The notes: generated by a model not told the origin, from the sequence alone. 64,000 nt of DNA from Thermoplasmata archaeon (GCA_021806135.1 JAJZYB010000004.1:7686-71685), one strand, 5' to 3'. Positions 4,075 through 53,510 are shown, counted from the first letter of the stretch. Translations and numbers: made by a program.

Positions 4075-5733
4075 ATGCGCTACGTGGTGGTCACGGGAGG
4101 GGTCATTTCCGGTCTCGGAAAGGGCATCACCACGTCTTCCATCGCCCGGATCCTCAAGGCCCGGGGAGTCCCGCTCACGGTGGTCAAGATCGACCCCTAC
4201 CTCAACGTGGACGCCGGGACCATGAACCCGTACCAGCACGGGGAGGTCTTCGTCCTGGACGACGGCACGGAAGTGGACCTGGACCTGGGCAATTACGAGC
4301 GGTTCCTGGGGGAAAGCCTTCCCGGCAACCACAACCTGACCACGGGCAAGGTGTACCGCACGGTCATCGAGAAGGAACGCCGGGGGGATTACCTCGGGAA
4401 CACCGTCCAGATCATCCCCCACGTCACCGGCGAGGTCAAGCACATGCTGAGGGAAGCGGCGCAGCACGCCCAGGCCGAGCTCACCTTGGTCGAGGTGGGC
4501 GGCACCGTGGGCGACATCGAGTCCATGCCCTTCCTCGAAGCGCTCCGCGAACTCCAGCAGGAGGTGGGAGGGCGTGATCACATGGCCTTCGTCCATACCA
4601 CCCTCGTCCCGGTGGTGGGGGCCGTGGGAGAGGCGAAGACCAAACCCACCCAGCACTCGGTCCGGGAGCTCCGGTCACTGGGCATCCAGCCGGACATGAT
4701 CGTGGCCCGGGGACCCGCCGCCCTGACCCCGGACCTCAGGGCCAAGATCTCCCTGTTCTGCGATGTCCCTCCCGAGGCCGTCATCGCCGTGCCCGACCTA
4801 CCCACGGTCTACCAGGTGCCACTCCACCTGGAGTCCCAGGGAGTGGGAGACTACCTGGTCAAACGCCTGGGGATCAAGGCGCTGCCGGGGGACTGGACCT
4901 CATGGCAGCGGTTCCTGGAGGTGTACGCCCACCCCCAGAGCGAGGTCACCGTGGGCGTGGTCGGGAAGTACGTGCAGCTCAAGGACGCCTACCTCTCCCA
5001 TATCGAGGCCTTCCACCACTGCCAGGGTGCGCTCGGGGTGGGGGTCCGCCTCCGCTGGTTCGATTCGGAGGACCTCCTCCGTCTCCCCGGGGAACGCCAG
5101 GCGCTGGAGGCGGTGGACGCGGTCCTGGTCCCGGGAGGGTACGGGACCCGGGGCGTGGAAGGGAAGATCCTCGCCGCAGAGATCGCCCGGACCCGGGGCA
5201 TCCCCTTCCTCGGGATCTGCCTTGGCTTCCAGCTGGCCACGGTGGAGGCGGTCCGCCACCTGTTGAACCACCCTGAGGCCAACTCCACGGAGTTCGAATC
5301 CGCCACCCCGCACCCGGCCATCACCCTTTTGGACAGCCAGGCGGGCCAAGCCCACTTGGGGGGGACCCAACGGTTGGGGGCCCAGACCGTGGAGGTGGTG
5401 GAAGGGTCTGTGCTGAACCGGCTCTATGGACGGACCAAGATCTCCGAGCGGCACCGGCACCGCTACGAAGTGAACCCGGCGTACGTGGACGACCTCTCCC
5501 GGCAGGGGTTCGTGGTGAACGCCCGGAGCGCGGACGGACGGGTGGAGGGGTTCGAGCTCACCACCCATCCCTTCTACCTGGGCGTGCAGTACCATCCCGA
5601 GTTCCTCTCCCGCCCGCAGAGCCCCCATGTCCTGTTCCTGGGACTGGTCCGTGCGGGCCACGTGCGCCGGCAGGGGATCGCCGTACCCAAGGAGGAAGCT
5701 TCGCATGTCGCAACCCCGTCGGCTGTCGCGTGA
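4075..5733 (+). CDS. pyrG: CTP synthase
   Basis: The N-terminus MRYVVVTGGVISGLGKGITTSSIARILKARG... and the GATase domain (GICLGFQLA) identify it. A TATA-like aaggttttatcg sits at 4032-4043. Confidence 0.95.
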   Translation: MRYVVVTGGVISGLGKGITTSSIARILKARGVPLTVVKIDPYLNVDAGTMNPYQHGEVFVLDDGTEVDLDLGNYERFLGESLPGNHNLTTGKVYRTVIEKERRGDYLGNTVQIIPHVTGEVKHMLREAAQHAQAELTLVEVGGTVGDIESMPFLEALRELQQEVGGRDHMAFVHTTLVPVVGAVGEAKTKPTQHSVRELRSLGIQPDMIVARGPAALTPDLRAKISLFCDVPPEAVIAVPDLPTVYQVPLHLESQGVGDYLVKRLGIKALPGDWTSWQRFLEVYAHPQSEVTVGVVGKYVQLKDAYLSHIEAFHHCQGALGVGVRLRWFDSEDLLRLPGERQALEAVDAVLVPGGYGTRGVEGKILAAEIARTRGIPFLGICLGFQLATVEAVRHLLNHPEANSTEFESATPHPAITLLDSQAGQAHLGGTQRLGAQTVEVVEGSVLNRLYGRTKISERHRHRYEVNPAYVDDLSRQGFVVNARSADGRVEGFELTTHPFYLGVQYHPEFLSRPQSPHVLFLGLVRAGHVRRQGIAVPKEEASHVATPSAVA

Positions 5734-7027
5734 ACTGCCGGGCCTCGTCGGCCAGGAAGTGCGGGTGGCCGGCCACCTGCAGGACTACCGCGCGCTAGGC
5801 GGGGTGGCGTTCGCGCTCCTGAGGGACCGCGGGGGGCTTCTGCAGGTGACCTTGAAGAAGGGGGAGACCGACCCGGCGATCTTCACCCTGTTCTCCTCCC
5901 TGGCCCGGGAGAGCGTGGTGGAGGCCGAAGGGGTCGTCGCGGCAAACCCCCGGGCCCGGGTCGGCGCGGAGGTCCTCCCCCGCCAGGCCCGACTGCTGAA
6001 CCCCGCGGCCGCTCCCCTCCCTCTCGGGGTGGCGGACCGGGTCGGGGTGGAGCTGGACACCCGGTTCAACCACCGGGTCCTGGACCTGCGCAAACCGGAG
6101 AACCAGCTGGTGGTGGAGTTCCGGGCGGAGACCCTCAAAGCGGTACGGAGCGCCTTTGGAACGCTAGGGTTCCTGGAGGTGGAGACCCCGAAGATCCTCC
6201 GCCAGGGGGCTGAAGGAGGGGCCACGCTCTTCCGGCTGGACTACTTCGGGGAGCCCGCCTACCTGGCCCAGAGCCCGCAACTCTACAAGCAGATGCTCAT
6301 GGCCACCGAGCTCGAGCGGATCTTCGAGATCGCTCCCGCCTTCCGGGCCGAGCCCTCGGACACGACCCGGCATGTGACGGAGTTCACCAGCATCGACGCG
6401 GAGATGGCGTACGTGGAGGAGCCGGAGGAGCTCATCTCCACCGTGGAGGCTTTGGTCGCGGGGATGCTGACGGAGCTCCGGGACGGGCTCAAGGCAAGGA
6501 AGCATCCGCTCGCTGACGACCTCCCCACCCCTTCGCGTCCCTTCCCCCGCCTGCCCTTCTCCGAGGCAGCTCAATGGCTCGGGCGCTCCCCGGGGGACCC
6601 GGGTGCGGAGGCGGACCTATCCCCCGAGGACGAGCGCCAGTTGGGGGAGCTCATGCAGGAAAGGAAGGGGGCGGAGTTCTACTTCCTGACCGAGTTCCCC
6701 ACCTCCCTGAAACGCGGGACGTTCTATGCCCAGCGCCAGGAGAGCCATCCGGAACGGACCTACTACTTTGATCTGGAGTTCCGGGGCCAGGAGATGCTCT
6801 CCGGGGGGCTCCGCGAACACCGGTTGGACCGGCTGGAGGATCAGATTCGGGAGGCCGGGCTCGATCCCGGTAAGTTCGGGGCCTACTTGGAGGCCTTCCG
6901 CTACGGCATGCCCCCGCATGGGGGGTTCGCCCTGGGGTTGGACCGGCTGGTGGGCCGCCTCGCCCACCTGACCAATGTCCGCGAGGCCCGGCTCTTCCCC
7001 CGGGACCGGTACCGGCTGGAGCCGTAG
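5705..7027 (+). CDS. aspS: aspartyl-tRNA synthetase, archaeal/eukaryal type (class IIb)
   Basis: It has an OB anticodon-binding domain (GQEVRVAGHLQDYRALGGVAFALLRD) and class II motifs (FRAEPSDTTRHVTEFTSIDAEMAY, GGFALGLDRLV). The ATG at 5705 is in frame with the track ORF 5627 and overlaps the pyrG 3' end by about 29 nt. Confidence 0.9.
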   Translation: MSQPRRLSRELPGLVGQEVRVAGHLQDYRALGGVAFALLRDRGGLLQVTLKKGETDPAIFTLFSSLARESVVEAEGVVAANPRARVGAEVLPRQARLLNPAAAPLPLGVADRVGVELDTRFNHRVLDLRKPENQLVVEFRAETLKAVRSAFGTLGFLEVETPKILRQGAEGGATLFRLDYFGEPAYLAQSPQLYKQMLMATELERIFEIAPAFRAEPSDTTRHVTEFTSIDAEMAYVEEPEELISTVEALVAGMLTELRDGLKARKHPLADDLPTPSRPFPRLPFSEAAQWLGRSPGDPGAEADLSPEDERQLGELMQERKGAEFYFLTEFPTSLKRGTFYAQRQESHPERTYYFDLEFRGQEMLSGGLREHRLDRLEDQIREAGLDPGKFGAYLEAFRYGMPPHGGFALGLDRLVGRLAHLTNVREARLFPRDRYRLEP

Positions 7028-7039
7028 GAGGCGAGGAAC

Positions 7040-9184
7040 GTGGCCCTGGTCCCCCCGGTGGTGCTCGCCCCGCCGGAGCTGACGCTCCGGTGGCGGACCT
7101 TCCTGGAGGAGAGCCCGTACCGGGCGCAGCTCAAACGGGTGGCGGACGCCTACCCCCAGGAGCGCTCCCTCACGGTGGAGTTCTCCGAGCTGGACCGGCG
7201 CGACACGGCCCTGGCGGACCAGCTCCTCCAGCGGCCGGAGCCGGTCCTTACGGCCGGCCAACGGGCGCTCGAGGAAATGCTGCCGGGGGCGTTGAACCTC
7301 CCGGGCCCGATCCACCTGAGGGTGGAACACCTTCCCCCCCACGAGCGGGTGGCCATCCATCGCCTCCGGCAGAACCACCTGCGCCGTTTCCTGTCGGTCG
7401 ATGGGATCGTCCGGCGGGTCAGCCAGGTGCTTCCGCAGATCACCGAGGCGGTCTATGAGTGCTCCGCCTGCCATACCCACCTGCGCTGGCCCCAGGAGGA
7501 GACGAGCCCGGTGGTGGAGGCTCCCCCCGGCTGTGATGAGGACCAGGGGGGGTGCGGGAAACCCGCCGGCCGGGTCCGGTTCCGCCTCTTGGAGGACGAG
7601 AGTCGGACGGTGGACTACCAGCGCCTGGAACTCCAGGAGAACCCGGAGACCCTGCGGGGGGGGGCCCATCCCGAAGGCCTCACGGTGATCCTTCTCGACG
7701 ACCTGGTCGGACAGATCGTCCCCGGGACCCGGATGGTGGCGAACGGCGTGCTGAAAGGGGTCCCCCGGCCCGCCGGTTCCCGGGGGTCCAACGCCACCTC
7801 CAACGTCTTCGACACCGTCTTCCTGGCCAACTCGCTCGAACGGCTGGACCGGGAGTACCTGGAGATCGAGATCAGCGAGGAGGAACGCAAGGCCATCGAG
7901 GCCTACCGGGGCGACCCCAGCGTCTTCCCCCGGATCGTGGCCTCCCTCGCCCCCAGCGTCGCAGGGATGGAGCCGGAGAAGCAGGCGATCGCCCTCCAGC
8001 TCTTCGGGGGCGTGCACAAGGACCTCCCCGACGGGATGCGGGTACGGGGAGACGTCCACATCCTCATGGTGGGGGACCCGGGGGTCGCGAAGAGCCAGCT
8101 CCTGCGCTACGTGGCGGAGACCGCCCCCCGGGGGGTCTACACCAGCGGCAAGGGGGCCACGGCGGCGGGGCTCACGGCCGCCGCGGTCCGGGACGACTTC
8201 GCCGGGGGGCGCTGGGTGCTGGAGGCAGGGGCCATGGTCCTCGCGGATGGGGGCATGCTCTGCATCGACGAGATGGACAAGATGTCCGAGGGGGACCGGG
8301 CCAGCATGCACGAGGCCATGGAGCAGCAGACGGTCTCGGTGGCCAAGGCCGGGATCACCGTGACGCTGCGGGCCCGCTGTCCGGTGCTGGCGGCCGCCAA
8401 TCCCAAGCTGGGGCGGTTCACCCCCGGGGAGGAGCCCCAGCGGGAGCTGAACCTCCCTCCCACGCTCCTGTCCCGCTTCGACCTCATCCTCATCATCCTG
8501 GACGTCCCGGACGCCGAGCGCGACCAGCATCTGGCCGAGGCGATCCTCGCCCAGCATCAACGGGCCGAGGGACGCGAGGCGAGCCGGCACCGGGGAGCCA
8601 ACCCCGCCTCCGGGCTGGGTTCGGGCCTCTTCTCCCAGGACTTCCTGAGGAAGTACGTGGCCTACGCCAAACAACGGGTCTTCCCGACGATGGACCAGGA
8701 GGCGTACGAACGGCTGAAGGACTACTATACCGGCATGCGACGCCTGGCGGTCCGCCAGAGCGAGGGCGAGGCGGCCCGGCCCATCCCTGTGACGCCCCGG
8801 CAGCTCGAGGCCCTGATCCGGCTCACGGAGGCCTCGGCCCGGTCCCGGCTCTCCGCCATGGCGACCCGGGAGGACGCGGACCGGGCCGTGTCGGTGGTGG
8901 ACCACTTCCTGCGTCGGGTGGCGACGGTGGAGGGCGGGCAGCTGGACATCGACACCATCTACACGGGGGTGAGCTCCGGCCACCGGGACCGGCTGGTCCG
9001 GGTCCGTCGGTTGCTGACCGGGCTCCAGAGCGCGAACCCCCAGGGCTTCAGTTTGACCCAGGTGAGCCAGGCCGCGCGGGAGCACGACCTGTCGGAGGCC
9101 GAGGTGGAGCGCCTGGTGGGGGAGCTGGAGCGTCTCAACGAGGTGTACAGTCCCCGGCCCGGCGTCTACAAGATGGCCCACTAG
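7040..9184 (+). CDS. mcm: MCM replicative helicase
   Basis: It has a C4 zinc finger (CSACHTH...CDEDQGGCG), Walker A (ILMVGDPGVAKSQLL), Walker B (MLCIDEMDKM) and an arginine finger region (SRFDLILIILD). Length is 714 aa. Confidence 0.95.
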   Translation: MALVPPVVLAPPELTLRWRTFLEESPYRAQLKRVADAYPQERSLTVEFSELDRRDTALADQLLQRPEPVLTAGQRALEEMLPGALNLPGPIHLRVEHLPPHERVAIHRLRQNHLRRFLSVDGIVRRVSQVLPQITEAVYECSACHTHLRWPQEETSPVVEAPPGCDEDQGGCGKPAGRVRFRLLEDESRTVDYQRLELQENPETLRGGAHPEGLTVILLDDLVGQIVPGTRMVANGVLKGVPRPAGSRGSNATSNVFDTVFLANSLERLDREYLEIEISEEERKAIEAYRGDPSVFPRIVASLAPSVAGMEPEKQAIALQLFGGVHKDLPDGMRVRGDVHILMVGDPGVAKSQLLRYVAETAPRGVYTSGKGATAAGLTAAAVRDDFAGGRWVLEAGAMVLADGGMLCIDEMDKMSEGDRASMHEAMEQQTVSVAKAGITVTLRARCPVLAAANPKLGRFTPGEEPQRELNLPPTLLSRFDLILIILDVPDAERDQHLAEAILAQHQRAEGREASRHRGANPASGLGSGLFSQDFLRKYVAYAKQRVFPTMDQEAYERLKDYYTGMRRLAVRQSEGEAARPIPVTPRQLEALIRLTEASARSRLSAMATREDADRAVSVVDHFLRRVATVEGGQLDIDTIYTGVSSGHRDRLVRVRRLLTGLQSANPQGFSLTQVSQAAREHDLSEAEVERLVGELERLNEVYSPRPGVYKMAH

Positions 9185-11579: not shown

Positions 11580-11957
11580 ATGTTCCGAAAGCCCATTCTC
11601 CGCCGGCACCAGGACGATACCCTCGAAGACGGCAGTTTCCTCGACCTGGGGGCCATGCACTTTGAGGACGAGGCGTCGGCCATGAACGCGGCCAAGGCCA
11701 CCGTCCGGGTGGCCGAGATCTTCCGGTTCGAGGAACTCCACGCCCTCTCCAAGTACGCCTACCAGGGCGACATCGTGCTCCTCGACTACACCTCCCTTTC
11801 CAACGACCAGGTGGCCGTGAACCGCCTGAACTCGGAGTTGAAGAACGTGGTCCGGGACACCGGGGGAGATGTGGCGGGCGTGTCGAAGAACCTGCTCGCC
11901 CTGACGCCCGCCGGGATCAAGGTGGACCGCCACAAGCTCCGGCCAGAGGGCCTCTAA
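11580..11957 (+). CDS. sepF: SepF-like cell-division protein (DUF552)
   Basis: The C-terminal core GDIVLLDYTSLSNDQVAVNRLNSELKNVVRDTGGDVAGVSKNLLALTPAGIKVD aligns with the bacterial SepF core (...VVNLQ...GGDIQRIG..IFL.TP..V.V). Confidence 0.6.
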   Translation: MFRKPILRRHQDDTLEDGSFLDLGAMHFEDEASAMNAAKATVRVAEIFRFEELHALSKYAYQGDIVLLDYTSLSNDQVAVNRLNSELKNVVRDTGGDVAGVSKNLLALTPAGIKVDRHKLRPEGL

Positions 11958-12036: not shown

Positions 12037-13566
12037 ATGAAGCTCGAGGCGGTTCGTGCCGAAGCGTGGGATCTGGAGGACGTGGAAGCTGTGGTGGTGG
12101 GGCTCACCGAACGCTCCGGCCCTGAACCTGCGCTCCCTCGCTCGCTCGGACCGGACGACCAGAAGGTCGGCGGATATCTCAAGCGGGCCGTGGCACGGGG
12201 GGAGATCCGGGGAAAACGAGGGGAGCTCCACGTGGTGCCTCTCCCGGGGCTGGACCGGCGGTTGATCGTGGCCGGGTTGGGACCCGATCGCTCCCTGGAT
12301 GCCGAGGAACTGCGCCGGGTCGCCGGTAGTGTGGTCCGACAGGCCCGGGGCCGCCGCCTGAGGTCGCTGGCCTTCCGGCTCCCGCTCTTCACCCAGGGGC
12401 GCGTGGACCCCGCGGACGCCGCGTCGGCCATGGCGGAAGGGTGCCGCCTGGCCCTCTACGAGTTCACCCGGTTCAAACCTACGGAGACCCCGGGAACCGT
12501 GGAGCGGGTGGTCCTCGCCTTGGGTCCCGAGCAGGGACGGCTTCTTGCCCGGGTCCGGGGGAACCTGGAGACGGCCGGGAAGCTCTCCGAAGCAGTGGTC
12601 TGGGCCCGGGACATCGGGAACCTGCCCGCGAACGTGGCGAGCCCTGCCTTCCTCGCGGAGCAGGCCCGGGCCATGGGCAAGGAGTTCGGATTGAAGGTGA
12701 CCGTCTACGACGAGCAGCAGCTGGCCGAGATGGGCTGCGGCGGTCTCTTGGCCGTGGGCGGAGGGTCGTCGACCCATCCCCCCCGGATGGTGGTCGTGGA
12801 GTACCCGGGACAGGGAGGGGCCCGGAGCCGGACCGTGGGCGTGGTGGGGAAGGGGATCACCTTCGACTCCGGGGGGATCTCCATCAAGCCGGCCATCCAC
12901 ATGTCGGACATGAAGTTCGACAAATCCGGTGCCGTGGCCGTCCTGGGCATCCTCCGGGCGGCGGCGGCGCTGAAGGTCCGCCCCCGGGTGATCGGGGTCC
13001 TCTGCTGTGCGGAGAACGTCCCATCCGGGAGCTCTTACCGCCCGGGGGACGTGGTGCGGACGTTCGGGGGCAAGACCATCGAGGTGCTCAACACGGACGC
13101 CGAGGGCCGGGTGGCGCTCTCCGACGGTCTTTCGTGGTTGAACGCCACCCATCACCCCGACATCATCATCGACCTGGCCACTCTCACGGGGGCCTGCGTG
13201 ACCGCGCTGGGGTTCGATTCGGCGGGACTCTTCGCCACCGACGACGGTTTGGCCCGCGCGTTGCTCGCCTCGGGTGAGGCCACCGGGGAGCGGCTCTGGC
13301 GTATGCCGCTCAAGCCCGTGCATCACGAGATGGTCCGCAGCGACGTGGCGGACGTGAAGAACTCCCTGGAGGCTCCCCTGGCGGGGGCCATCACGGCGGC
13401 GGCCTTCCTCCACACCTTCGTGGGGGATACCCCGTGGGCCCACCTGGACATCGCCGGAACGGCCTACGTGGGGAGCGGAGCGGCGCGCTTCGCCCCGTCC
13501 TACGCGTCCTCGGGGTTCGTGGGCTTCGGCATCCGGCTCCTCGCGGACTACCTGAAGGGGCTCTGA
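12037..13566 (+). CDS. pepA: leucyl aminopeptidase (M17 family)
   Basis: The M17 signature NTDAEGRVALSDG is present, along with GKGITFDSGGISIK and a metal-ligand region. Confidence 0.9.
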   Translation: MKLEAVRAEAWDLEDVEAVVVGLTERSGPEPALPRSLGPDDQKVGGYLKRAVARGEIRGKRGELHVVPLPGLDRRLIVAGLGPDRSLDAEELRRVAGSVVRQARGRRLRSLAFRLPLFTQGRVDPADAASAMAEGCRLALYEFTRFKPTETPGTVERVVLALGPEQGRLLARVRGNLETAGKLSEAVVWARDIGNLPANVASPAFLAEQARAMGKEFGLKVTVYDEQQLAEMGCGGLLAVGGGSSTHPPRMVVVEYPGQGGARSRTVGVVGKGITFDSGGISIKPAIHMSDMKFDKSGAVAVLGILRAAAALKVRPRVIGVLCCAENVPSGSSYRPGDVVRTFGGKTIEVLNTDAEGRVALSDGLSWLNATHHPDIIIDLATLTGACVTALGFDSAGLFATDDGLARALLASGEATGERLWRMPLKPVHHEMVRSDVADVKNSLEAPLAGAITAAAFLHTFVGDTPWAHLDIAGTAYVGSGAARFAPSYASSGFVGFGIRLLADYLKGL

Positions 13567-13574
13567 GGCCGGTC

Positions 13575-15041
13575 TCAGGAGTTCGGGACGATCTTGATCG
13601 ACTCGCCCCCGTGCCGGCTCGCCCGGGGACGGACCTCGCAGAAGAGGGGGGTGGTGAACCCACCGCCGGTGACCAGGCAGGTGCCGATGGGGAGCCCCTG
13701 GATGATCTCGGTCATCCCATCGGTGAGCCCTTCGATGCTCTGGGCGATGGCCCGGACGTCGAGCGGGTTGGTGACCTGAAGGATCAGCTGGGCGGCGCAC
13801 TGGGAGAGGACGCTCTTGTCCACCCGCGCCGGCCGCTGGCTCACCACGCAGAGCCCGAGGCCGAACTTCCGCCCCTCGCTGGCGATGGTCTTGAGGATCC
13901 GGGAGGAGAGCGCCTGGCCTTGCTGGGGGCAGAAATTGTGCGCCTCCTCGAGGACCAGGAAGAGGGGGGGGATCTTCCCCCGCTTCCGCTGGTCGAAGAA
14001 GCTGGTGGCCACCCGGGTCACGATGAGCTCCTGCACGTCCGGCGCCACGCCGCGCAGGTTCAGGATGGTCATCTTCCCCTGGACCACCAGCTCGGTGAGG
14101 CTGGTCCCCTTCGGGGCCAACAGCCGGGTCTCGTCGATGTATTCGAGGCGTTGGGCGATGGCCTCGAAGAGCGCTCCCCCATCCTCCCGTCCCCTCGCGA
14201 GCCGGATGAGGTCCTTGACCGTGTAGTCCTCGGCGCCCTGGCTGGCCTCGTCCAGGAGGGATTTCATGGGGGCCACATACCCCCGGACGTTGGTGATCCC
14301 CAGGAAGAGGAGGAGCTCCCGGGCATCCAGGTGTCCGAGGGAGAAGGTCAGCGGGCGTGCCTCGGCATTGAGCTTGGTGTCCGGGGAGAACTCCTGCACC
14401 TGCTCCCGGAACGACTGGGGTTCCACGTGGAAGCGTTCGGCCCTCTCCTTGGGGATGTGCTCGGTCTTGTAGCGGATGCTCCCGTACTCGCCGTGCGGGT
14501 CGATGATGATGCAGGTGACCCTGTGGCGGAGGAACTCCTCCAAGAGCACGCCCACCAGGTAGCTCTTCCCCCCGCCGGTCTTCGCGAGCACGCTCACATG
14601 GCGCTGGACCAAGGCGTTGATGTCCAGTTCCACCTTGAGGTCGTGTCCCCGGAGCAGCCCGAGGTAGGCGCCGGCGTTCCCGTTGGTCTTGAGGCCGAGG
14701 ACCTCGGCGATGAGGGGCTCCTGGGCCCGGTGGACGGTGGCTCCCGGGGCGAACGGGATCTGGGGGACCCGGATGAGCCCGCCCTCCCGGTAACCGAGGA
14801 TCCGAGCCTTGCCGTAGAAGGACTCCTGCACGTCCACGGAGCCGCCGTGGACCATCTCGGTGGCCTTCTCCAGGCTCAGGTCGCTCCGGCGCTGCACGTC
14901 GTCGAGCTGGCAGAGGACATCGCGTTCGCCCTCGTCCTTCACGGAGAGGTACTCTCCCCGTTCCAGGGGATGGGCGAGGGTCAGGCGGAACGCGCCGAGG
15001 CCGACGTCCCCATAGATCCGGCCCACCACCTCCCCCGGCAT
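13575..15041 (-). CDS. HerA/FtsK-like ATPase (DUF87 family)
   Basis: Walker A is VLAKTGGGKSY and Walker B is FLVLEEAHNF. An N-terminal barrel-like region precedes the ATPase. A TATA-like gctttatcgg on the minus strand lies about 30-40 nt upstream at 15071-15080. Confidence 0.75.
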   Translation of the reverse strand: MPGEVVGRIYGDVGLGAFRLTLAHPLERGEYLSVKDEGERDVLCQLDDVQRRSDLSLEKATEMVHGGSVDVQESFYGKARILGYREGGLIRVPQIPFAPGATVHRAQEPLIAEVLGLKTNGNAGAYLGLLRGHDLKVELDINALVQRHVSVLAKTGGGKSYLVGVLLEEFLRHRVTCIIIDPHGEYGSIRYKTEHIPKERAERFHVEPQSFREQVQEFSPDTKLNAEARPLTFSLGHLDARELLLFLGITNVRGYVAPMKSLLDEASQGAEDYTVKDLIRLARGREDGGALFEAIAQRLEYIDETRLLAPKGTSLTELVVQGKMTILNLRGVAPDVQELIVTRVATSFFDQRKRGKIPPLFLVLEEAHNFCPQQGQALSSRILKTIASEGRKFGLGLCVVSQRPARVDKSVLSQCAAQLILQVTNPLDVRAIAQSIEGLTDGMTEIIQGLPIGTCLVTGGGFTTPLFCEVRPRASRHGGESIKIVPNS

Positions 15042-15225
15042 GCTGGCCAGTCCTGGGGAGCCAAGCTCCGCTCCCCGATAAAGCCGTGACGTTCCACGGG
15101 GCCCTGGAGGCGCTCAGCGGACACCCGGTTCGAGGGGGGACGCGACCACGGCCAAGCCTTTATATGCCCTCGAGAAGGTGAACGACCGTCTTCTTGGCGG
15201 CGCGCCCCGCTCGGGCGCAGGTTCG

Positions 15226-16083
15226 ATGGCGGACGCGACAGAGGAACTCGAGAAAAAGCGCACGGAGGCGAACCGACGCGCCGACCAGTTCCGCGATGAG
15301 CGGGACCGCTTGAACTCCGAGGCCCGGCAATGGGCCGACAAGCGCATGGCCATCATTGACGAGCTCCGGGCCAAGAGCTCGGAGGCCCAGGCGCACCGGC
15401 ACGAGCGCGATGCGTTGAACGAGGGGGTCCGGGAGGAGAAGCGGGCCCGGGACGAGGCCAACCGCCAGTTCGAGACCCTGGCAGAGAAGGTCTCGGAACT
15501 CAAGCGGACCCGGCAGGCCCGCAGCGGGGGCATGCCCCTCTGGCGGCTCCGCAAGGAGCTCAAGGAACTGGAGTTCCGCCACATGACCAGCTCGCTCTCG
15601 AAGGAGGCCGAGACGCGCCTCCTGGGAGAGATCCAGCGCCTCCAGAAGGAGATCCGGACCCAGGAGGAGAGCTTCCATCAGGACCCCGAGGTCGATGGGG
15701 CCATGCGGGAGACGGAGGCCGCCCGGCAGGCGGCCGAGGAGCATCACCACCGGGTGGGCGAGCTCGCGGAACGGGCCCAGCGAGAGCATGAGCTCATGGT
15801 CCAGCTCTTCGAGGAGGTGGACCGCCTCCGGCGGGAGGCCGATGAGGTGCAGGCGAAGCTCCTCGAGGTCAAGACCGCCAGCGACCAGGCCCACCAGGCC
15901 CACATCCAGGCCATCGAAGAGGTGCGGGACCTGGAGAAGATGCTCCATGCGGCCCGGGCCCGGGCCCTAGGTCAACCCGAGGTGGAGGAACCCCCGAAGG
16001 AGGAAGACCTGTTCGCCCGGTTCAAGAAGGGAGGCAAGATCTCCACCGAGGACCTCATGGCCCTCCAGAAGAGCCCCCGGTGA
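15226..16083 (+). CDS. archaeal coiled-coil protein (COG1340-like)
   Basis: About 285 aa of heptad-rich E/R/K/A/L sequence (ELEKKRTEANRRADQFRDERDRLNSEARQW...). The ATG at 15226 is preferred over the track start 15178 because the TATA-like ctttatatg at 15152-15162 lies only 16 nt before 15178. Confidence 0.55.
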   Translation: MADATEELEKKRTEANRRADQFRDERDRLNSEARQWADKRMAIIDELRAKSSEAQAHRHERDALNEGVREEKRARDEANRQFETLAEKVSELKRTRQARSGGMPLWRLRKELKELEFRHMTSSLSKEAETRLLGEIQRLQKEIRTQEESFHQDPEVDGAMRETEAARQAAEEHHHRVGELAERAQREHELMVQLFEEVDRLRREADEVQAKLLEVKTASDQAHQAHIQAIEEVRDLEKMLHAARARALGQPEVEEPPKEEDLFARFKKGGKISTEDLMALQKSPR

Positions 16084-16145
16084 GAGGCAGGGGCCTTTCA
16101 TGGGGGGAGGTTTAATACTCGTGGAAAGGTGATGAAGGTACGAGC

Positions 16146-16547
16146 ATGCGATGGGTGAAGGTCAGCCAGGAGGAACTGGCCAAGATCAAGGACCTCTACG
16201 AGGGGGTCATGTCCCACGCCTGTCACGGGCTGTTCTTCCGGGAGGGTGCCGTGCTCGGCGCGGACCTGGCGGACGAGGGCCTCCATGACCGCACCCGGTA
16301 CTTCCCCACGGTCGCCGATATGCTTAAGTCCAGGGGGTGGGTCGAGGATATTCAGTTCTCGGACCAGGCAATCACTGCCCGAGGCAGCGTGGAGGTAGTC
16401 CAGAGTGACATCCCTACCTGTCACCGGCTCCGAGGGATCATCCGGGAGGTCTATGAACGGTACCGAGGGACCCGGGTCAATTGTACCGAAGAGGAGTGCG
16501 CCAGCCTGGGCAAGGACCAGTGCAAATTTATCATCGAGGAGATCTGA
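16146..16547 (+). CDS. V4R-domain protein (4-vinyl reductase-like small-molecule-binding domain)
   Basis: The C-terminal signature CASLGKDQCKFIIEEI is the V4R C..G...C.F.I motif. A TATA-like ggtttaatactc lies about 30 nt upstream. Confidence 0.6.
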   Translation: MRWVKVSQEELAKIKDLYEGVMSHACHGLFFREGAVLGADLADEGLHDRTRYFPTVADMLKSRGWVEDIQFSDQAITARGSVEVVQSDIPTCHRLRGIIREVYERYRGTRVNCTEEECASLGKDQCKFIIEEI

Positions 16548-16563
16548 TTGAGGGGAGGGAAGG

Positions 16564-16923
16564 ATGATGGCGGCAGGTAACGTGGGGGCGGTCATCAAGG
16601 ATCTGAAGGGCCGCATCGGGGCGATCGCCTGTGCCCTCGTCTCCCGGGACGGTCTGGTCCTGTACGCCGATGTCCCTGCCGGGGTCTACACGGAGACCTT
16701 CGCCATCATGTGCGCCACGATCCTGGGGGCCGCGGCCACCGCCAACACGGAGTTGAACCGCTCCCCTCCCGAGCGGATCGTCATCGAGGGGACGGATTCC
16801 CGGACCCTCATCGTGGGAAGCGGGAAGAAGGCGCTCCTGGTGGCCGTGGTCGACCAGGGCCAGGACACGTCCCGGATCCTGGACGAGGTCATCAAGGTGG
16901 CCGACCAGGTCACCTCGGGCTGA
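16564..16923 (+). CDS. Roadblock/LC7 (MglB-like) domain protein
   Basis: GAIACALVSRDGLVLYAD...ALLVAVVDQGQD matches the Roadblock fold pattern. An SD-like GGGAGGGAAGG lies just upstream. Confidence 0.65.
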   Translation: MMAAGNVGAVIKDLKGRIGAIACALVSRDGLVLYADVPAGVYTETFAIMCATILGAAATANTELNRSPPERIVIEGTDSRTLIVGSGKKALLVAVVDQGQDTSRILDEVIKVADQVTSG

Positions 16924-16952: not shown

Positions 16953-17840
16953 TCAGGCCTCCTGGGGCCGGTCCGAGCGGTTCGTCCCTGGCGACTCCGG
17001 AGGGATCCGCCGATCCGCTCCCAGAGCCGTCAACAACCGGGTGAAGTATCCCGCCAGCGCGGCCGCGAGCCGGGCGTAGGCGAGAGGAGAGCGCTGGCTC
17101 TGGAGCATCTGCCGGTAGCGGTAGTGGGCCCAGAGCAGCCCGTGCTTCTCCGTCAGTTGCTTCCTCCCGTACCCATTCCAGAACGCCTGGAGGAGGAACC
17201 GGGGCAGGGTGGCCCGCATCTGGTGGAGCACCCGGGCCTCCGGGGCGTAGACGATGGTCGCCCCGGCCCGGACCGCACGGAGGTTCAGGTCGATGTCCTC
17301 CGCCGTGACGAACCGGTCATCGAAGCCCCCCAGCCGGTCGAAGAGGTCCCGGTGATATCCCAGATTGCAGCTGGGGTAGGTCACGTCCTTCCCGCTCTGG
17401 TAGAGCTCCACCCGCTCCAACCGGGAGAACGCCCGGGTACCGGTCGCGGCGGTCCTTCCGGCAGCCACCGGGGCCTGGGAGAGCGCCTCGCGCATCCGGG
17501 CGAGCCAGCCGGTCTGCGCGATGCAGTCCCCGTCGATGAAGACCACGGCCGATCCCCGCGCATGCTGGACCCCGAGATTCCTCCCCGCCCCCCGGTGCCC
17601 CCGCTCACGGAAGAGCTGGAAGAGCTCGGGGTAGCGGGAGCGGTACTCCTCGGCAATGGCCCAGGTCCGGTCCGTGCTCAACGCGTCGACCAGGACGATC
17701 TCGAATGGAGGCTCTTGGGAGACCAGGCTCTCCAACAGGGAGGCCAGATGGGCCTCCTCGTTGCGGACCGTGATGACGATGGAGAGGAAGGGGAAAGGTT
17801 CGCGGGCCTCACTTGGGGGCAAGTTCCATGACCACCACAT
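16953..17840 (-). CDS. family 2 glycosyltransferase
   Basis: LSIVITVRNEEAHL, the DxD motif VFIDGDC and a GT-A fold identify it. Confidence 0.85.
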   Translation of the reverse strand: MWWSWNLPPSEAREPFPFLSIVITVRNEEAHLASLLESLVSQEPPFEIVLVDALSTDRTWAIAEEYRSRYPELFQLFRERGHRGAGRNLGVQHARGSAVVFIDGDCIAQTGWLARMREALSQAPVAAGRTAATGTRAFSRLERVELYQSGKDVTYPSCNLGYHRDLFDRLGGFDDRFVTAEDIDLNLRAVRAGATIVYAPEARVLHQMRATLPRFLLQAFWNGYGRKQLTEKHGLLWAHYRYRQMLQSQRSPLAYARLAAALAGYFTRLLTALGADRRIPPESPGTNRSDRPQEA

Positions 17841-18054
17841 CCCGGACAGCCCGCATGCTCTTGAAGGGAAGGATGAGGCGGTTTTCGCCGTCGGTCTGGA
17901 AGAGCCGTACCTCGATCTCGTTGTTGGGCTGGACCAGGACGTGCTGGATGTTCCCCGTGGAGGTGTCCACCACGAAGTTGTCGATCATGCCGAGGATGTC
18001 CCCCTCGTGCGTCATGACGGTCTTGCCCCTGAGCTCGGTGAGAAACTTACGCAT
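17809..18054 (-). CDS. PRC-barrel domain protein
   Basis: An 80-aa protein (MRKFLTELRGKTVMTHEGDILGMIDNFVVDTSTGNIQHVLV...) overlaps the GT2 start by about 30 nt. The track places a TTG start at 18060; an ATG lies at 18054. Confidence 0.55.
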   Translation of the reverse strand: MRKFLTELRGKTVMTHEGDILGMIDNFVVDTSTGNIQHVLVQPNNEIEVRLFQTDGENRLILPFKSMRAVRDVVVMELAPK

Positions 18055-18306
18055 CTCCAAGGCCTCGATCGGTAGGAATCATTGTGGACGCTTAGATAAG
18101 CGTTGTGCGGAAGAGGACCGGCGGGTGACCGGCCCCGGAGCGGCTGCGCCGGAGGGGGATCCGGTCATGGGCAAGCCCTTCCCGGGGCCGAGGTCCCCGG
18201 CCCGGTATGCCCGGTGAGCCCCGCGGGACCGTCCTTAAGGGGGGGGACTGACCATTCGGCGAGAAACCTTAATAATCGGACCTCAGGTGGGTGGCCCTCC
18301 CCCACC

Positions 18307-29767: not shown

Positions 29768-29788
29768 ACCGCCCCGGTGCCCCGGTGC

Positions 29789-29871
29789 GCTGAGGTAGCC
29801 TAGCCTGGTAGGGCGCCGGTCTTGAAAACCGGTGGCGTTCCGCCTCGGGAGTTCAAATCTCCCCCTCAGCG
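29789..29871 (+). tRNA. tRNA-Ser (anticodon UGA), 83 nt with a long variable arm
   Basis: Acceptor GCTGAGG pairs with CCTCAGC and the discriminator is G. The D-arm is GCCT-AGCCTGGTA-GGGC. The anticodon arm is CCGGT-CTTGAAA-ACCGG. The variable arm is GGCG-TTC-CGCC. The T-arm is GGGAG-TTCAAAT-CTCCC. Confidence 0.9.
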
Positions 29872-29981
29872 TTCCCTTCCCACCCCCATCGACCCGTACC
29901 CTCCCGTCCTTCACGTCCCTCTGGGGAGGATAGCCGGCGGTCGGCGAGCGCAGAGGGGCGCCCCCGTAGCGTTGGGGAGAG

Positions 29982-51916: not shown

Positions 51917-53464
51917 TCAGACCAGCGGGATGAGACGGACGTGCGGCGCCCCGGCCTCCGGGTCCACCGCGAGAGCGTAGAGCATGGTCCGGGGACGGAC
52001 CCCGTAGAGGCAGGGGGTGTTGTCGATGCTCACCACCCGGAAGTACGTGTCCATCATGTTCACGATCTCGGCGGTGGAGGAGAGCCCGGGCTTGAGGAGG
52101 CCCAATCCCACGTCCCCCATGATGCTGGTCCGCTCCACCCCCATGAAGAGGGTCTTGATGGCGAGCTGGTCTCCCTGAAGGTACTCCAGCGTGTCGAACC
52201 CGGTGTACTCGATGTAGGGCTGGGGCTGTCGGTCCCCTCGCACGGCCCGTTCGGCGTTCTGCAGCGCCCGTTGGGCGTCCTCCCTCCCGGCCCGGAGCAT
52301 GGGGAGGATGTACGGGGCCTTCGGCTCGGCCGCGAAGTAATCCGTGATCCGGACCCGGGAGTCGAAGGTCCCCGGCGGGATGAACCGGGCCAGGAGGTCC
52401 TTGAGGGACTCCGCCGACTCCCCCCCGGACAGGACCCCGAGGATCCCCCGGTCCTGCGAGAGGAAGTTCAGGAACATGGGCGCGAAGAGACGGTAGTAGT
52501 CGTCGGTGGAGACGTTCACGTCGATCTCGAAGCCATTGTAGGAGCCCCGGCGGAAGCCCCCGCCCAGCAGCGTGTCGAAGTCCGGTATCCCGGTGGAGAA
52601 GTGGGTGCGGCTGTCCGGGATCGGCTGCCATGGATGGGGCGCCATCTCGGTGGGCTCTGGGCGGGGAAGCAGTCCTAGGGCGCGGAACCGTCCGCCGGCG
52701 AGGGTGACCGCATAGCGGGACCGGGGGATGGCCGTGGCCCGGAGCTTCTCCAGGCGCAAGTGCCGGATCCTCCGCTCGTCCACCTCCTCCCGGGAGAGGG
52801 AGATGAGGCCATCGACCAGGTACTCGATGCCCCCGGCCTCGGGCTTCTCCAGGATCATCACCACGTTGGTGTTGGAGTTCTCGGCCAGGTCCTTCTGCAG
52901 GGCCATGACCATCTCCTCCATCTCGAGGGCGTACTTGTGCGTCACCCCTTCGAGGGAATCCACCACCAAGAGGGCCTTCTCCGGGAGCACGCGCTCGATC
53001 CGGTCGTACAGGTGCTCGAGCTCGGGCATCCGGTTCCTCTGGAGCAGCGCGTTGAGCTGCGTGCGGTCCACGGTACGGGGGCGGGTGGCCTCCTCTCCCA
53101 TGGTCCGGAGCAGGTCCCGGGCCTGGTTGAGCCGCTCACGGACGGCGGGGGAGACCGGTGCGGCCGGTTCCCGCTCCCGTTCCGCGATGGTCTCCAGGAA
53201 GATCTTCCCGGCGTCGTAGATGCGGTTACGCGACTCCACGGTCTTGAGCCACGGGAACTGCCGGAGCAGGGCCTCGTCGGAGACACGCGTGGACAGGTAG
53301 AAGCTCCGGCCGCTCTCCCCGAGCTTCTCCAACAGTTCGAGCCCGAGCGTGGTCTTGCCCGTGCCGGCCCCACCCTTGACGATGACGCTCCGGCCCCCGG
53401 GTTGTCCGAGGAAGCTGACCAGTTCTGGGGGGATGCCAGTGGGGTCGGTGGGGGTAGGGTCCAT
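51917..53464 (-). CDS. KaiC-like double RecA-fold ATPase with an intact first domain and a degenerate second domain
   Basis: Domain 1 has TGIPPELVSFLGQPGG...VKGGAGTGKTTLGLELL (Walker A) and LLVVDSL (Walker B). Domain 2 keeps TGIPDFDTLLGGGFRRGS but lacks a P-loop. The ATG at 53464 is preferred to the track TTG at 53506 because of the spacing to the TATA. Confidence 0.6.
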   Translation of the reverse strand: MDPTPTDPTGIPPELVSFLGQPGGRSVIVKGGAGTGKTTLGLELLEKLGESGRSFYLSTRVSDEALLRQFPWLKTVESRNRIYDAGKIFLETIAEREREPAAPVSPAVRERLNQARDLLRTMGEEATRPRTVDRTQLNALLQRNRMPELEHLYDRIERVLPEKALLVVDSLEGVTHKYALEMEEMVMALQKDLAENSNTNVVMILEKPEAGGIEYLVDGLISLSREEVDERRIRHLRLEKLRATAIPRSRYAVTLAGGRFRALGLLPRPEPTEMAPHPWQPIPDSRTHFSTGIPDFDTLLGGGFRRGSYNGFEIDVNVSTDDYYRLFAPMFLNFLSQDRGILGVLSGGESAESLKDLLARFIPPGTFDSRVRITDYFAAEPKAPYILPMLRAGREDAQRALQNAERAVRGDRQPQPYIEYTGFDTLEYLQGDQLAIKTLFMGVERTSIMGDVGLGLLKPGLSSTAEIVNMMDTYFRVVSIDNTPCLYGVRPRTMLYALAVDPEAGAPHVRLIPLV

Positions 53465-53510
53465 GTGAATGGGGTCCTCCTTGAGCGCGGGAAAATCAAG
53501 GCTCAATCGC

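Follow-up and report, generated by a model that had tools for sequence, protein, structure and literature searches.

Four neighbouring genes of a Thermoplasmata clade, for a HerA-like ATPase, a DUF7121 coiled-coil protein, a V4R protein and a Roadblock protein, may be a lineage-specific juxtaposition of separate transcription units

Introduction

In a stretch of Thermoplasmata DNA of 64,000 nucleotides (the window), a gene for a HerA-like ATPase lies divergent from a gene for a coiled-coil protein of the DUF7121/COG1340 family, and genes for a V4R protein and a Roadblock/LC7 protein follow. The original prediction was that these four proteins may act together, which raises the question of whether the locus encodes one four-component machine or brings together genes that are transcribed separately. 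Here we address this question through the signals and families found at the locus, the order of these genes in related genomes, and their neighbours elsewhere in archaea.

Results

Gene content and transcription units of the locus

By ORF calling and Pfam searches, all four genes are real and belong to the families originally assigned to them (DUF87/HerA, COG1340, which equals DUF7121, V4R and Robl_LC7), and the Pfam scores of the four proteins all exceed the gathering cut-offs. The genes are as follows:

13575-15041, minus strand: HerA-like ATPase (DUF87) gene, 488 aa
15226-16083, plus strand: coiled-coil DUF7121/COG1340 gene, 285 aa
16146-16547, plus strand: V4R gene, 133 aa, with its stop codon at 16545-16547
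16564-16923, plus strand: Roadblock/LC7 (MglB-like) gene, 119 aa, with its ATG at 16564

Third-position GC is 0.87-0.91 in the HerA-like, coiled-coil and Roadblock frames, as is typical of coding sequence at 70% genome GC. Homologues are numerous for each protein searched (58-100% identity), and an identical (100%) V4R protein occurs in a mine-drainage metagenome. The group of archaea in which the four genes occur side by side is uncultured and comes from acid soil and mine drainage. They are flanked by these genes, of which the last two had been predicted 3' of the cluster and are borne out by their Pfam matches:

11580-11957, plus strand: SepF (archaeal FtsZ membrane anchor family), Pfam 40.6 bits against a cut-off of 27; PDB 3zie (SepF-like), E=1e-13
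12037-13566, plus strand: M17 leucyl aminopeptidase, Peptidase_M17 369.8 bits; convergent with the HerA-like gene, 8 bp apart
16953-17840, minus strand: GT2 glycosyltransferase, Glycos_transf_2 87.9 bits; convergent with the Roadblock gene, its start overlapped by the PRC gene
17809-18060, minus strand: PRC-barrel protein, 83 aa, Pfam PRC 41.2 bits; PDB 8qzo, E=6e-14, and 8onw, E=3e-8

About 12 further window genes were identified by eye or synteny only; genes recognised in this way include those for CTP synthase, AspRS, MCM, MutS, MutL, the proteasome beta subunit, SdhA/B/E-like proteins, TFB, AlaRS, ribosomal proteins L13 and S9, and RpoN.

The spacers of the cluster hold the following signals, the TATA boxes being read directly from the sequence:

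15042-15225, no strand: divergent intergenic region between the HerA-like and DUF7121 genes, with two separate TATA boxes
15083-15077, minus strand: TATA box CTTTATC of the HerA-like gene
15159-15165, plus strand: TATA box TTTATAT of the DUF7121 gene
16111-16117, plus strand: TATA-like box TTTAATA, 32 nt 5' of the V4R ATG
16550-16563, plus strand: purine-rich Shine-Dalgarno-like stretch GAGGGGAGGGAAGG, between the V4R stop codon and the Roadblock ATG

Both TATA boxes of the divergent spacer recur in relatives (~45 loci), the DUF7121 box as CGATATAAAG and the HerA-like box as CGCGTCAnnCTAATAA/T, and no shared palindromic operator was seen in this spacer in the window or in the ~45 related loci. 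For the coiled-coil gene, a GTG start at 15178 (301 aa) was rejected in favor of the ATG at 15226, because homologues align from this ATG and because the TATA box at 15159-15165 would place the transcription start 3' of the GTG. The TTTAATA box points to a separate promoter for V4R and Roadblock, and GAGGGGAGGGAAGG abuts the Roadblock ATG directly, so that the separate TATA and Shine-Dalgarno signals claimed for the two genes are indeed present. The gap between them is 14-23 bp in all 38 related loci. V4R and Roadblock constitute a bicistron with its own TATA box, a Shine-Dalgarno-coupled second gene and invariant spacing. The other tight unit at the locus is formed by the PRC and GT2 genes, which overlap in each of 34 loci, by 10-28 nt.

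The V4R-Roadblock pair and its putative NTPase target

The V4R protein matches PF02830 at 43.8 bits (cut-off 31), and residues H24, C26, H27, C92, H93, C113, C118 and C126 are invariant columns among 36 homologues. The C-terminal motif originally described as C..G...C.F.I is present with its spacing off by one, the actual motif being C118-x3-G-x3-C126-x-F-x-I. When an AF2 model of the protein (pLDDT 82) was compared with the PDB using Foldseek, the best matches were the phenol-sensor domains of MopR, PoxR and DmpR, the V4R protein MJ1460, and TRAPPC3/Bet3 (TM ~0.55-0.68), with a probability of 1.0 for MopR, PoxR and MJ1460. Judged from this model, the protein appears structurally at least as near to the bacterial phenol sensors (MopR, PoxR) as to TRAPPC3/Bet3; the TRAPP Bet3 Pfam family was not matched, V4R alone being reported at E<=0.01. 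By analogy with V4R domains of the MopR/PoxR/MsvR type, the protein may contain a Zn-stabilised, ligand- or redox-sensing pocket.

The Roadblock protein matches Robl_LC7 (PF03259) at 39.4 bits (cut-off 23) and, in sequence searches, PDB 7f8m, a Roadblock/LC7-domain protein (E=1.9e-8), and 9jue_D (E=1.4e-6). To our knowledge, all characterised Roadblock relatives (MglB, LAMTOR/Ragulator, LC7, CvnB) dock onto an NTPase and control it, and all except dynein LC7 act on small GTPases (MglB, LAMTOR, CvnB). By the same token, the protein described here could be a dimeric platform that docks onto and regulates an NTPase, and it may form a heteromeric complex with the V4R protein. The two are probably a Zn/ligand-sensing regulatory pair acting on a putative NTPase. 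Consistent with the original prediction that no small GTPase gene lies near the cluster, no small-GTPase family was found among the scanned and called proteins of the 64-kb window, and none of the GTPase families was found within 7-8 kb in the annotated related loci (L001-L005 and L172-L174). Of the genes called in the window, only the HerA-like one encodes a P-loop NTPase within ~8 kb of Roadblock. This HerA-like neighbour is a candidate target, but a GTPase with its gene elsewhere is no less probable.

If the target is a GTPase, the pair would resemble MglB, Ragulator or TRAPP in serving a small GTPase as a GAP-, GEF- or scaffold-like module, with the GTPase gene at another place in the genome, that is, it would be part of a classical GTPase switch with a distal partner. 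We regard this explanation as possible, if on the doubtful side. The known targets of Roadblock proteins fit it, as does the fold that V4R has in common with TRAPPC3/Bet3; the position of V4R nearer to sensor domains than to Bet3, together with the unmatched Bet3 Pfam family, argues against it. A distance between the partners would have a parallel in Asgard archaea, in which Roadblock, TRAPPC3 and GTPase genes as a rule do not share operons (PMC10933270). The GTPase switch overlaps with the explanation that we prefer, but commits to a GTPase target.

The HerA-like ATPase

The HerA-like protein is a HerA-family P-loop ATPase with intact motifs, encoded by a monocistronic gene with its own TATA box. 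It matches DUF87 (PF01935) at 107.8 bits (cut-off 23.2), and in sequence searches S. solfataricus HerA (PDB 4d2i) matches residues 92-465 (E=3e-30). Walker A (AKTGGGKS), Walker B (LFLVLEEAH) and the SQRPARVD motif are intact in the translation and invariant in 12 homologues. The HAS-barrel family PF09378 scored 18.9 bits over residues 7-86, under its cut-off of 25.2, and a precomputed Pfam match to this family exists for some homologues. Most likely, the protein would act as a hexameric DNA translocase or helicase.

Narrower identities were considered and rejected. Canonical HerA, the DSB-repair helicase, is the top NCBIfam match (NF040819), yet the score of 139.5 bits against a cut-off of 970, like that of NF040937 (125.9 bits against 800), is far under the equivalog cut-off. 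In L001-L005 and L172-L174, no gene called within 7-8 kb had a match to the NurA, Mre11 or Rad50 Pfam families, and none was found among the scanned window proteins. With regard to FtsK/SpoIIIE, the FtsK_SpoIIIE domain had no Pfam match and a hydrophobic N-terminus is not visible in the sequence. As for the anti-phage HerA systems (Sir2-HerA, DUF4297-HerA and others), the PADLOC matches span only the ATPase core (residues ~320-475) and the PADLOC models gave no defence-system signature past this generic core; the neighbours of the HerA-like gene are housekeeping genes, with no defence effector beside it.

Gene order is conserved within one clade

By its own check, the gene order in related genomes, the original prediction is not refuted. 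The order is conserved in ~40 related species-level genomes, only within one Thermoplasmata clade, which we defined by a HerA-like identity of at least 61% (42 species-level genomes; 62-96% identity inside the clade). The HerA-like and DUF7121 genes are divergent neighbours in 40 of these 42 genomes, and V4R-Roadblock lies inside the cluster in 31 of the 33 that have enough flank. In the lineage represented by L001-L003, both flanks are different and the four genes are still contiguous, a hint that the block is able to move, or to be kept, as a unit. The constancy of the divergent pair also runs counter to a reading of the locus as separate units, as does the position of the HerA-like protein as the only P-loop NTPase called around the Roadblock gene, with no small GTPase found among the called genes of the 64 kb.

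These features could be explained by an integrated module in which V4R-Roadblock would be a GTPase-independent regulator of the adjacent HerA/FtsK-type ATPase and DUF7121 a coiled-coil adaptor or tether, acting in chromosome segregation or cell division. Besides the gene order and the lack of a small GTPase among the scanned proteins of the 64 kb, this explanation draws on the SepF and CdpB-like PRC-barrel genes nearby (1.6 kb from the HerA-like gene and 0.9 kb from the Roadblock gene, respectively), as SepF and PRC-barrel CdpB proteins make a division complex in Haloferax and Archaeoglobus (bioRxiv 10.1101/2023.03.28.534543). It also draws on archaeal type IV pilus loci, in which Roadblock genes of arCOG02603 reportedly accompany FtsK/HerA-superfamily ATPases (PMC4858521); this association and the contiguity in L001-L003 both favor linkage.

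Several lines of evidence nevertheless make the integrated module unlikely in our view. The units have separate promoters and share no operator. The cluster is also loosely built: the gap between DUF7121 and V4R is bimodal (65-160 bp or ~840 bp), and in at least 26 of 31 species genomes the longer form contains a gene for a HAD hydrolase; two spacers reach 2.4-3.5 kb in total. Insertions occur between the HerA-like and M17 genes in 8 of 44 loci and between GT2 and Roadblock in 5 of 33. L028 and L034 have HerA-like and DUF7121 but no V4R-Roadblock, and the HerA-like gene of L009 and L040 is adjoined by KdpC or a methyltransferase instead of DUF7121. Moreover, conservation of the flanking SepF-M17 pair (adjoining in 40 of 42 loci) and PRC-GT2 pair equals or exceeds that of the cluster, and ribosomal proteins are conserved about equally, so that synteny alone can account for the pattern.

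Finally, the linkage is missing from all sister lineages sampled. HerA-like orthologues at 46-52% identity (genome-scan loci L047-L085, Methanomassiliicoccales and relatives) sit among nucleotide and CoA genes, with none of the partner genes nearby in 39 loci, and outside the clade none of 86 DUF7121 loci has HerA-like, V4R or Roadblock genes near it; since the V4R and Roadblock HMMs for these scans were built solely from clade sequences, very divergent members near HerA-like or DUF7121 could be missed.

DUF7121 is a widespread family with other partners

The coiled-coil protein matches DUF7121 (PF23435) at 120.8 bits (cut-off 29). DUF7121/COG1340 is a widespread archaeal family of fixed length (~285-290 aa; 186 clusters at E<1e-10), whose gene is monocistronic at this locus; our protein aligns end to end with 20 diverse representatives, and the motifs LEFxQMT and FKxGEKLSTEDLxxLQ are kept. 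Its AF2 model (pLDDT 90.5) is an antiparallel helical hairpin (helices 2-100 and 154-247) with tip helices (105-152) and a small C-terminal motif (259-281), so the predicted fold is a ~100-residue hairpin with a conserved tip and C-terminal peptide motif. Outside the clade, DUF7121 occurs beside MBF1-Sua5-MetAP, and MBF1 lies 12 bp 3' of it in 35 loci; SHMT overlaps the DUF7121 start from upstream in six, and SRP54 lies beside it in at least 12; in Methanocellales and Methanolliviera MAGs, DUF7121 is fused to a bona fide SerB (236.9 bits, cut-off 144). Because its conserved partners elsewhere are SerB, SHMT, MBF1 and SRP54, which also count against the integrated module, DUF7121 would most likely have a housekeeping scaffold role unrelated to HerA.

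The SerB and SHMT partners, the HAD gene of most relatives and the ligand binding of the MopR and PoxR V4R domains could also indicate an ancestral DUF7121-HAD phosphatase-V4R-Roadblock operon of metabolic or regulatory function. In it, V4R would be the sensor of a small metabolite, the coiled-coil protein would cooperate with the phosphatase, and HerA-like would be only a neighbour, HAD having been lost secondarily in the lineage of the window. We find this improbable: the clade HAD is a generic HAD-IA protein for which BLAST shows no similarity to the SerB domain, and it belongs to so common a family that adjacency could be chance; the window and several relatives lack the HAD gene but retain the others; and V4R has its own TATA box in the window.

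Discussion

We lean towards the view that separate transcription units have come to lie next to each other here, in a synteny specific to this lineage, and that the locus is not one four-component machine. The idea of a four-part machine is weakly supported, because only V4R-Roadblock behaves as a true two-gene unit. The original prediction holds for the families, the promoters, the lack of a GTPase and the PRC and GT2 genes; joint action of the four proteins is not well supported, since conservation is limited to one clade and does not exceed that of flanking housekeeping genes, L028 and L034 lack V4R-Roadblock and L009 and L040 lack DUF7121 next to HerA-like, DUF7121 and V4R are set apart in most relatives by a HAD gene or by a total of 2.4-3.5 kb, sister-lineage HerA-like and DUF7121 genes lack the other three nearby, and V4R is at least as near to phenol sensors as to Bet3, whose Pfam family it does not match.

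Parts of the locus can be compared with known systems. Like HerA of the HerA-NurA DNA end-resection complex, the HerA-like protein has ~490 aa, a DUF87 core and intact Walker motifs, and the alignment with S. solfataricus HerA (4d2i) runs almost from end to end; a HAS-barrel is putative. Unlike canonical HerA, the protein scores far below the equivalog cut-off (139.5 against 970 bits), and no NurA, Mre11 or Rad50 gene was called within 7-8 kb of its gene in L001-L005 and L172-L174. Archaeal type IV pilus loci resemble this locus in having a Roadblock gene close to an FtsK/HerA-superfamily ATPase gene with no GTPase (PMC4858521); however, pilin, PilC/TadC-like and secretion-ATPase genes are absent from this locus, and its ATPase falls in the HerA branch rather than with VirB11/PilB. 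The cluster has SepF on one side and a PRC-barrel gene on the other, all within 6.5 kb, which recalls the SepF-CdpB divisome, but PRC is coupled to GT2 and SepF to M17, neither is in an operon with the four genes, and the PRC barrel, likened to CdpB by family, is a candidate rather than an assigned CdpB1/CdpB2 orthologue. The Dip divisome-positioning system, made up of the DipA GTPase, DipB (DUF2073) and DipC (Zn-ribbon) (PMC13228585), was rejected, as its families differ by Pfam from those found here.

The 119-aa Roadblock/LC7-domain protein resembles MglB of the MglA/MglB switch and archaeal and Asgard Roadblock proteins, whereas it has no MglA-like or small GTPase gene adjacent or nearby among the scanned 64-kb genes and its operon partner is a V4R protein. 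The sensors MopR, PoxR and DmpR, with MsvR and MJ1460, are the closest comparison for V4R: the top structural matches (Foldseek E ~1e-5, query-normalised TM ~0.65) are in this group, the Cys/His-rich C-terminal half resembles the Zn site of these domains, and NCBIfam matches the protein to the MsvR C-terminus. Unlike these sensors, it is a stand-alone protein of 133 aa, without an AAA+ or HTH output domain, and has an additional invariant SHACHG motif in helix 1. TRAPP combines Bet3-type subunits with a second type of regulatory subunit, which the pairing of V4R with Roadblock recalls. V4R shares a fold superfamily with Bet3/TRAPPC3 of eukaryotes and TRAPPC3 of Thorarchaeota (Foldseek E 4e-5 to 1e-3), but with TM scores under those to the bacterial sensors, no Bet3 Pfam match and no partner GTPase or Rab-like gene among the scanned window proteins; the likeness to Bet3 is structural only.

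The four-gene cluster and its surroundings

The genes that the original prediction placed at 13575-16923 belong to the families it had named, namely a HerA-like ATPase (DUF87), a coiled-coil protein of the COG1340 type (hereafter DUF7121), a V4R protein and a Roadblock protein; all four ORFs carry strong coding signatures, and all Pfam scores lie above the gathering cut-offs. The PRC-barrel and GT2 genes said to follow the cluster are also present, both on the minus strand, and the reported lack of a nearby small GTPase extends to all scanned proteins of the 64-kb window, none of which belongs to that family. The GC content of the window is 70%, and third-position GC is 0.87-0.91 in the three cluster ORFs that passed the GC filter. 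For about a dozen window genes the names come from visual inspection or synteny, not from a family scan.

Genes of the cluster and its flanks (coordinates, strand, description)
Upstream of the cluster: CTP synthase, AspRS and MCM, named by synteny with annotated relatives
Upstream of the cluster: DUF424 and NMD3
11580-11957, plus: SepF, upstream of the cluster
12037-13566, plus: M17 aminopeptidase (PepA-like), upstream of the cluster
13575-15041, minus: DUF87/HerA-like ATPase, 488 aa, Pfam 107.8 bits
15226-16083, plus: DUF7121 (COG1340 coiled coil), 285 aa, Pfam 120.8 bits
16146-16547, plus: V4R, 133 aa, Pfam 43.8 bits
16564-16923, plus: Robl_LC7 (Roadblock), 119 aa, Pfam 39.4 bits
16953-17840, minus: GT2 glycosyltransferase, after Roadblock
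17809-18060, minus: PRC-barrel, after GT2
Beyond the PRC-barrel gene: L18e, L13, S9 and RpoN

Database searches place the window closest to uncultured Thermoplasmata of soils and mine drainage, and the V4R protein is 100% identical to one protein from a mine-drainage metagenome. Elsewhere in the window, tRNA-Ser(TGA) at 29788-29872 (plus strand) is the sole RNA gene found (ARAGORN; Rfam at gathering thresholds). A PKD-domain surface protein at 53868-56028 (plus strand) is seemingly split over two reading frames near 54.9 kb, into an N-terminal ORF from 53868 with a signal-peptide-like start and a PKD ORF from 54892 to 56028; a frameshift, pseudogenisation or faulty assembly may explain the split. 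The window MCM (7040-9184) has 714 aa and no intein, and MCM proteins of about 1060-1090 aa with inteins (Intein_splicing, LAGLIDADG) are encoded in the related loci L173 (12471-15491) and L174 (11757-14942).

Gene order within and outside the clade

Searched with a HerA-like profile, a genome set with a single representative of each GTDB species gave 80 loci, 42 of them at 61% identity or more, and these define the clade considered here. DUF7121 is the divergent neighbour of the HerA-like gene in 40 of the 42 clade loci, its place being taken by KdpC in L009 and by a methyltransferase in L040. Among the 33 loci whose flank is long enough, V4R-Roadblock follows DUF7121 in 31 and is missing from the cluster in the other two (L028 and L034). 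Metagenome contigs have the same arrangement as the species genomes.

Spacing at gene junctions in related loci
V4R/Roadblock: 14-23 bp, 38 of 38 loci
PRC/GT2: overlap of 10-28 nt, 34 of 34 loci
HerA-like/DUF7121: 136-593 bp, 48 of 48 loci
DUF7121/V4R: 40 loci, bimodal, 65-160 bp or about 840 bp with a HAD hydrolase gene; two total spacers of 2.4-3.5 kb
HerA-like/M17: insertions in 8 of 44 loci
GT2/Roadblock: insertions in 5 of 33 loci

In at least 26 of 31 species genomes, the HAD gene accounts for the longer form of the DUF7121/V4R spacer (for example L004, 6222-6968). It is absent from this position in the window (16084-16145) and its closest relatives (L006, L172, L173, L001, L015 and L037), and no HAD homologue was found anywhere in the 64-kb window.

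Synteny extends all the way from MCM to RpoN in most clade genomes, and the order of the four genes is therefore conserved no better than its background. The one informative exception is the lineage of L001-L003, where the four genes are contiguous and both flanks are different. Outside the clade lie 39 HerA-like loci of Methanomassiliicoccales and other Thermoplasmatota, at 46-52% identity, and none has DUF7121, V4R or Roadblock within 7 kb of the HerA-like gene; its neighbours in the six loci inspected include thymidylate kinase, PRPP synthase, a small conserved ORF, pantoate kinase and CoaBC. The conserved order on which the original prediction had staked its module thus holds among clade relatives, but the partners are lacking in the out-of-clade loci.

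Among the latter, the Methanomassiliicoccales-like loci inspected (L049-L085) encode a HerA-like protein extended at its N-terminus by an acidic stretch of about 40-60 aa. A conserved ORF of about 95-105 aa (…APERSFNR…FLNMA…SYY…) overlaps or trails the HerA-like gene by a few bp (L060, 8467-8796; L074, 8442-8786), and pantoate kinase and CoaBC come after it.

Predicted transcription units

The HerA-like gene is preceded by a TATA element (CTTTATC, minus strand, 15083-15077) with the ATG 39 nt further on, DUF7121 by TTTATAT (15159-15165; ATG 64 nt further on) and V4R by TTTAATA (16111-16117; ATG 32 nt further on), while the 16 nt separating the V4R stop from the Roadblock ATG are taken up by an SD-like purine-rich stretch (16550-16563). 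Both TATA elements of the HerA/DUF7121 spacer are retained across about 45 related loci. A shared operator in this spacer was rejected, as conservation is limited to two separate BRE/TATA elements. Given separate signals for each unit and no common operator, the sequence predicts three transcription units: HerA-like, DUF7121, and V4R-Roadblock. Operon-grade coupling within the cluster is confined to V4R-Roadblock, and we therefore read the cluster as a regulatory pair, a separate HerA-like gene and a separate DUF7121 gene.

The HerA-like protein

Walker A, Walker B and SQRP motifs are all intact in the HerA-like protein, which would be a hexameric DNA translocase or helicase. Its alignment with S. 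solfataricus HerA (4d2i; E=3e-30) runs over nearly the full length. Its score against the canonical HerA NCBIfam equivalog (139.5) falls far below the 970-bit cut-off, and no NurA, Mre11 or Rad50 gene lies near it in annotated relatives. An anti-phage system was dismissed: the PADLOC matches are restricted to the generic ATPase core of HerA, the surrounding genes have housekeeping roles, and between species the protein is 62-96% conserved.

DUF7121 and its other partners

COG1340 turned up in our literature search solely under the label "highly conserved archaeal proteins of unknown function", and the search found no publication on DUF7121. In the structural model (pLDDT 90.5) two helices, each of about 95-100 residues, form an antiparallel hairpin; further helices make up its tip, and a short motif lies at the C-terminus. 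Across this broad family (577 clusters at E<1e-3, 186 at E<1e-10) protein length is fixed, and the motifs LEFxQMT and FKxGEKLSTEDLxxLQ are conserved. Fold matches in the PDB (the Rab11 GEF SH3BP5, SMC, MukB and Smc5/6 arms) all have E>=1.5e-3 and low TM; we took them as generic coiled-coil likeness that does not speak for a GEF or SMC function.

At 41-44% identity, DUF7121 adjoins SHMT and SRP54. A metagenome scan seeded with distant representatives added 80 loci, none with a HerA-like, V4R or Roadblock partner; Sua5/YrdC lies near DUF7121 in 30 of the 80, methionine aminopeptidase in 28 and SRP54 in 12. An MBF1-like Zn-ribbon/HTH gene stands on the same strand 12 bp downstream of DUF7121 in about 35 loci (among L092-L171; e.g. 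L150, 3112-4500), and in loci of this type Sua5/YrdC and methionine aminopeptidase come next. With family names read from the sequences, this order describes a putative translation-related neighbourhood. Two independent links tie DUF7121 to serine metabolism: SHMT overlaps its start in six Thermoplasmatota loci (L089-L091, L119, L134 and L136; three from the metagenome scan), and two representatives from Methanocellales and Methanolliviera MAGs (P0292, P0318) are SerB-DUF7121 fusions whose SerB domain scores above the equivalog cut-off. The NCBI name "phosphoserine phosphatase", misleading when given to plain DUF7121 proteins, probably derives from these fusions. For this widespread archaeal family, the recurrent partners SerB, SHMT, MBF1 and SRP54 point away from HerA, and DUF7121 would be a scaffold with partners other than the HerA-like protein.

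In two DUF7121 loci, L087 and L088, small upstream genes were considered as divergent Roadblock/V4R and rejected: they are winged-helix-like by sequence and do not match the V4R or Roadblock HMMs. L087 also has a GvpD/KaiC-like ATPase gene (4437-6035) about 1 kb upstream of DUF7121, with two winged-helix-like genes intervening; the window encodes a similar protein of 529 aa (51917-53506, minus strand), probably by coincidence.

The V4R-Roadblock pair

The V4R model (pLDDT 82) is structurally closest to the MopR/PoxR/DmpR phenol-sensor domains, followed by MJ1460 and TRAPPC3/Bet3, and eight His/Cys positions are invariant among 36 homologues. In a word-indexed search (297 proteins) the V4R subfamily was confined to the clade; the V4R and Roadblock HMMs were built from clade sequences, and remote homologues in other lineages may escape them. 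Roadblock matches the Roadblock/LC7-domain protein 7f8m by sequence (E=1.9e-8). The two proteins would form a small regulatory complex in which Roadblock would serve as an NTPase-docking platform and V4R would supply a Zn-stabilised pocket for ligand or redox sensing. Our literature search found no report joining V4R and Roadblock in one operon. The Dip divisome-positioning system (a GTPase, a SepF-like and a Zn-ribbon protein) was set aside, its gene families being different.

Flanking genes with a possible link to division

The overlap of the PRC-barrel gene with the GT2 start recurs throughout the related loci (L004-L046, L172-L174), and the two are therefore predicted to be a translationally coupled pair. 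The available part of the Zhao et al. preprint lists no such coupling with GT2 among its PRC-barrel neighbourhoods. The PRC protein matches the PDB PRC-barrel proteins 8qzo and 8onw, and PRC-barrel CdpB proteins are archaeal division factors (bioRxiv 10.1101/2023.03.28.534543). SepF lies immediately upstream of M17 in the same direction (adjacent in 40 of 42 related loci) and only about 6 kb from the PRC-barrel gene in the window; the same part of the Zhao et al. preprint describes such proximity as almost never seen.

One module or neighbouring genes

The joint module of the original prediction survives as far as gene order goes, but the pattern is the one to be expected if separately transcribed housekeeping genes share a lineage-specific synteny. 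We consider it unlikely that Roadblock-V4R regulates the HerA-like protein, with DUF7121 as adaptor and a part in division alongside the SepF and PRC-barrel proteins, even though the contiguity in L001-L003, the lack of a small GTPase among the scanned proteins of the 64 kb and the Roadblock genes reported in archaeal pilus loci based on FtsK/HerA-superfamily ATPases (PMC4858521) argue for it. A more specific version strikes us as highly improbable: that a GTPase-free V4R-Roadblock heterocomplex, gated by a ligand or by redox state, regulates a HerA/FtsK-type hexameric ATPase with the DUF7121 hairpin as tether, in a chromosome-segregation or division device that an uncultured Thermoplasmata order encodes between its SepF gene and a CdpB-like PRC-barrel gene.

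Read as separate units, the cluster is of value for annotation and defines a clade-specific V4R-Roadblock operon. Were the pair to regulate the HerA-like protein, a Roadblock platform would be acting on an FtsK/HerA-type ATPase without a GTPase being involved. This would broaden the old "NTPase regulator" hypothesis on the superfamily and offer a non-Asgard precedent for a Bet3-like fold paired with a Roadblock fold; the proposed heterocomplex would have the same folds as TRAPP and Ragulator.
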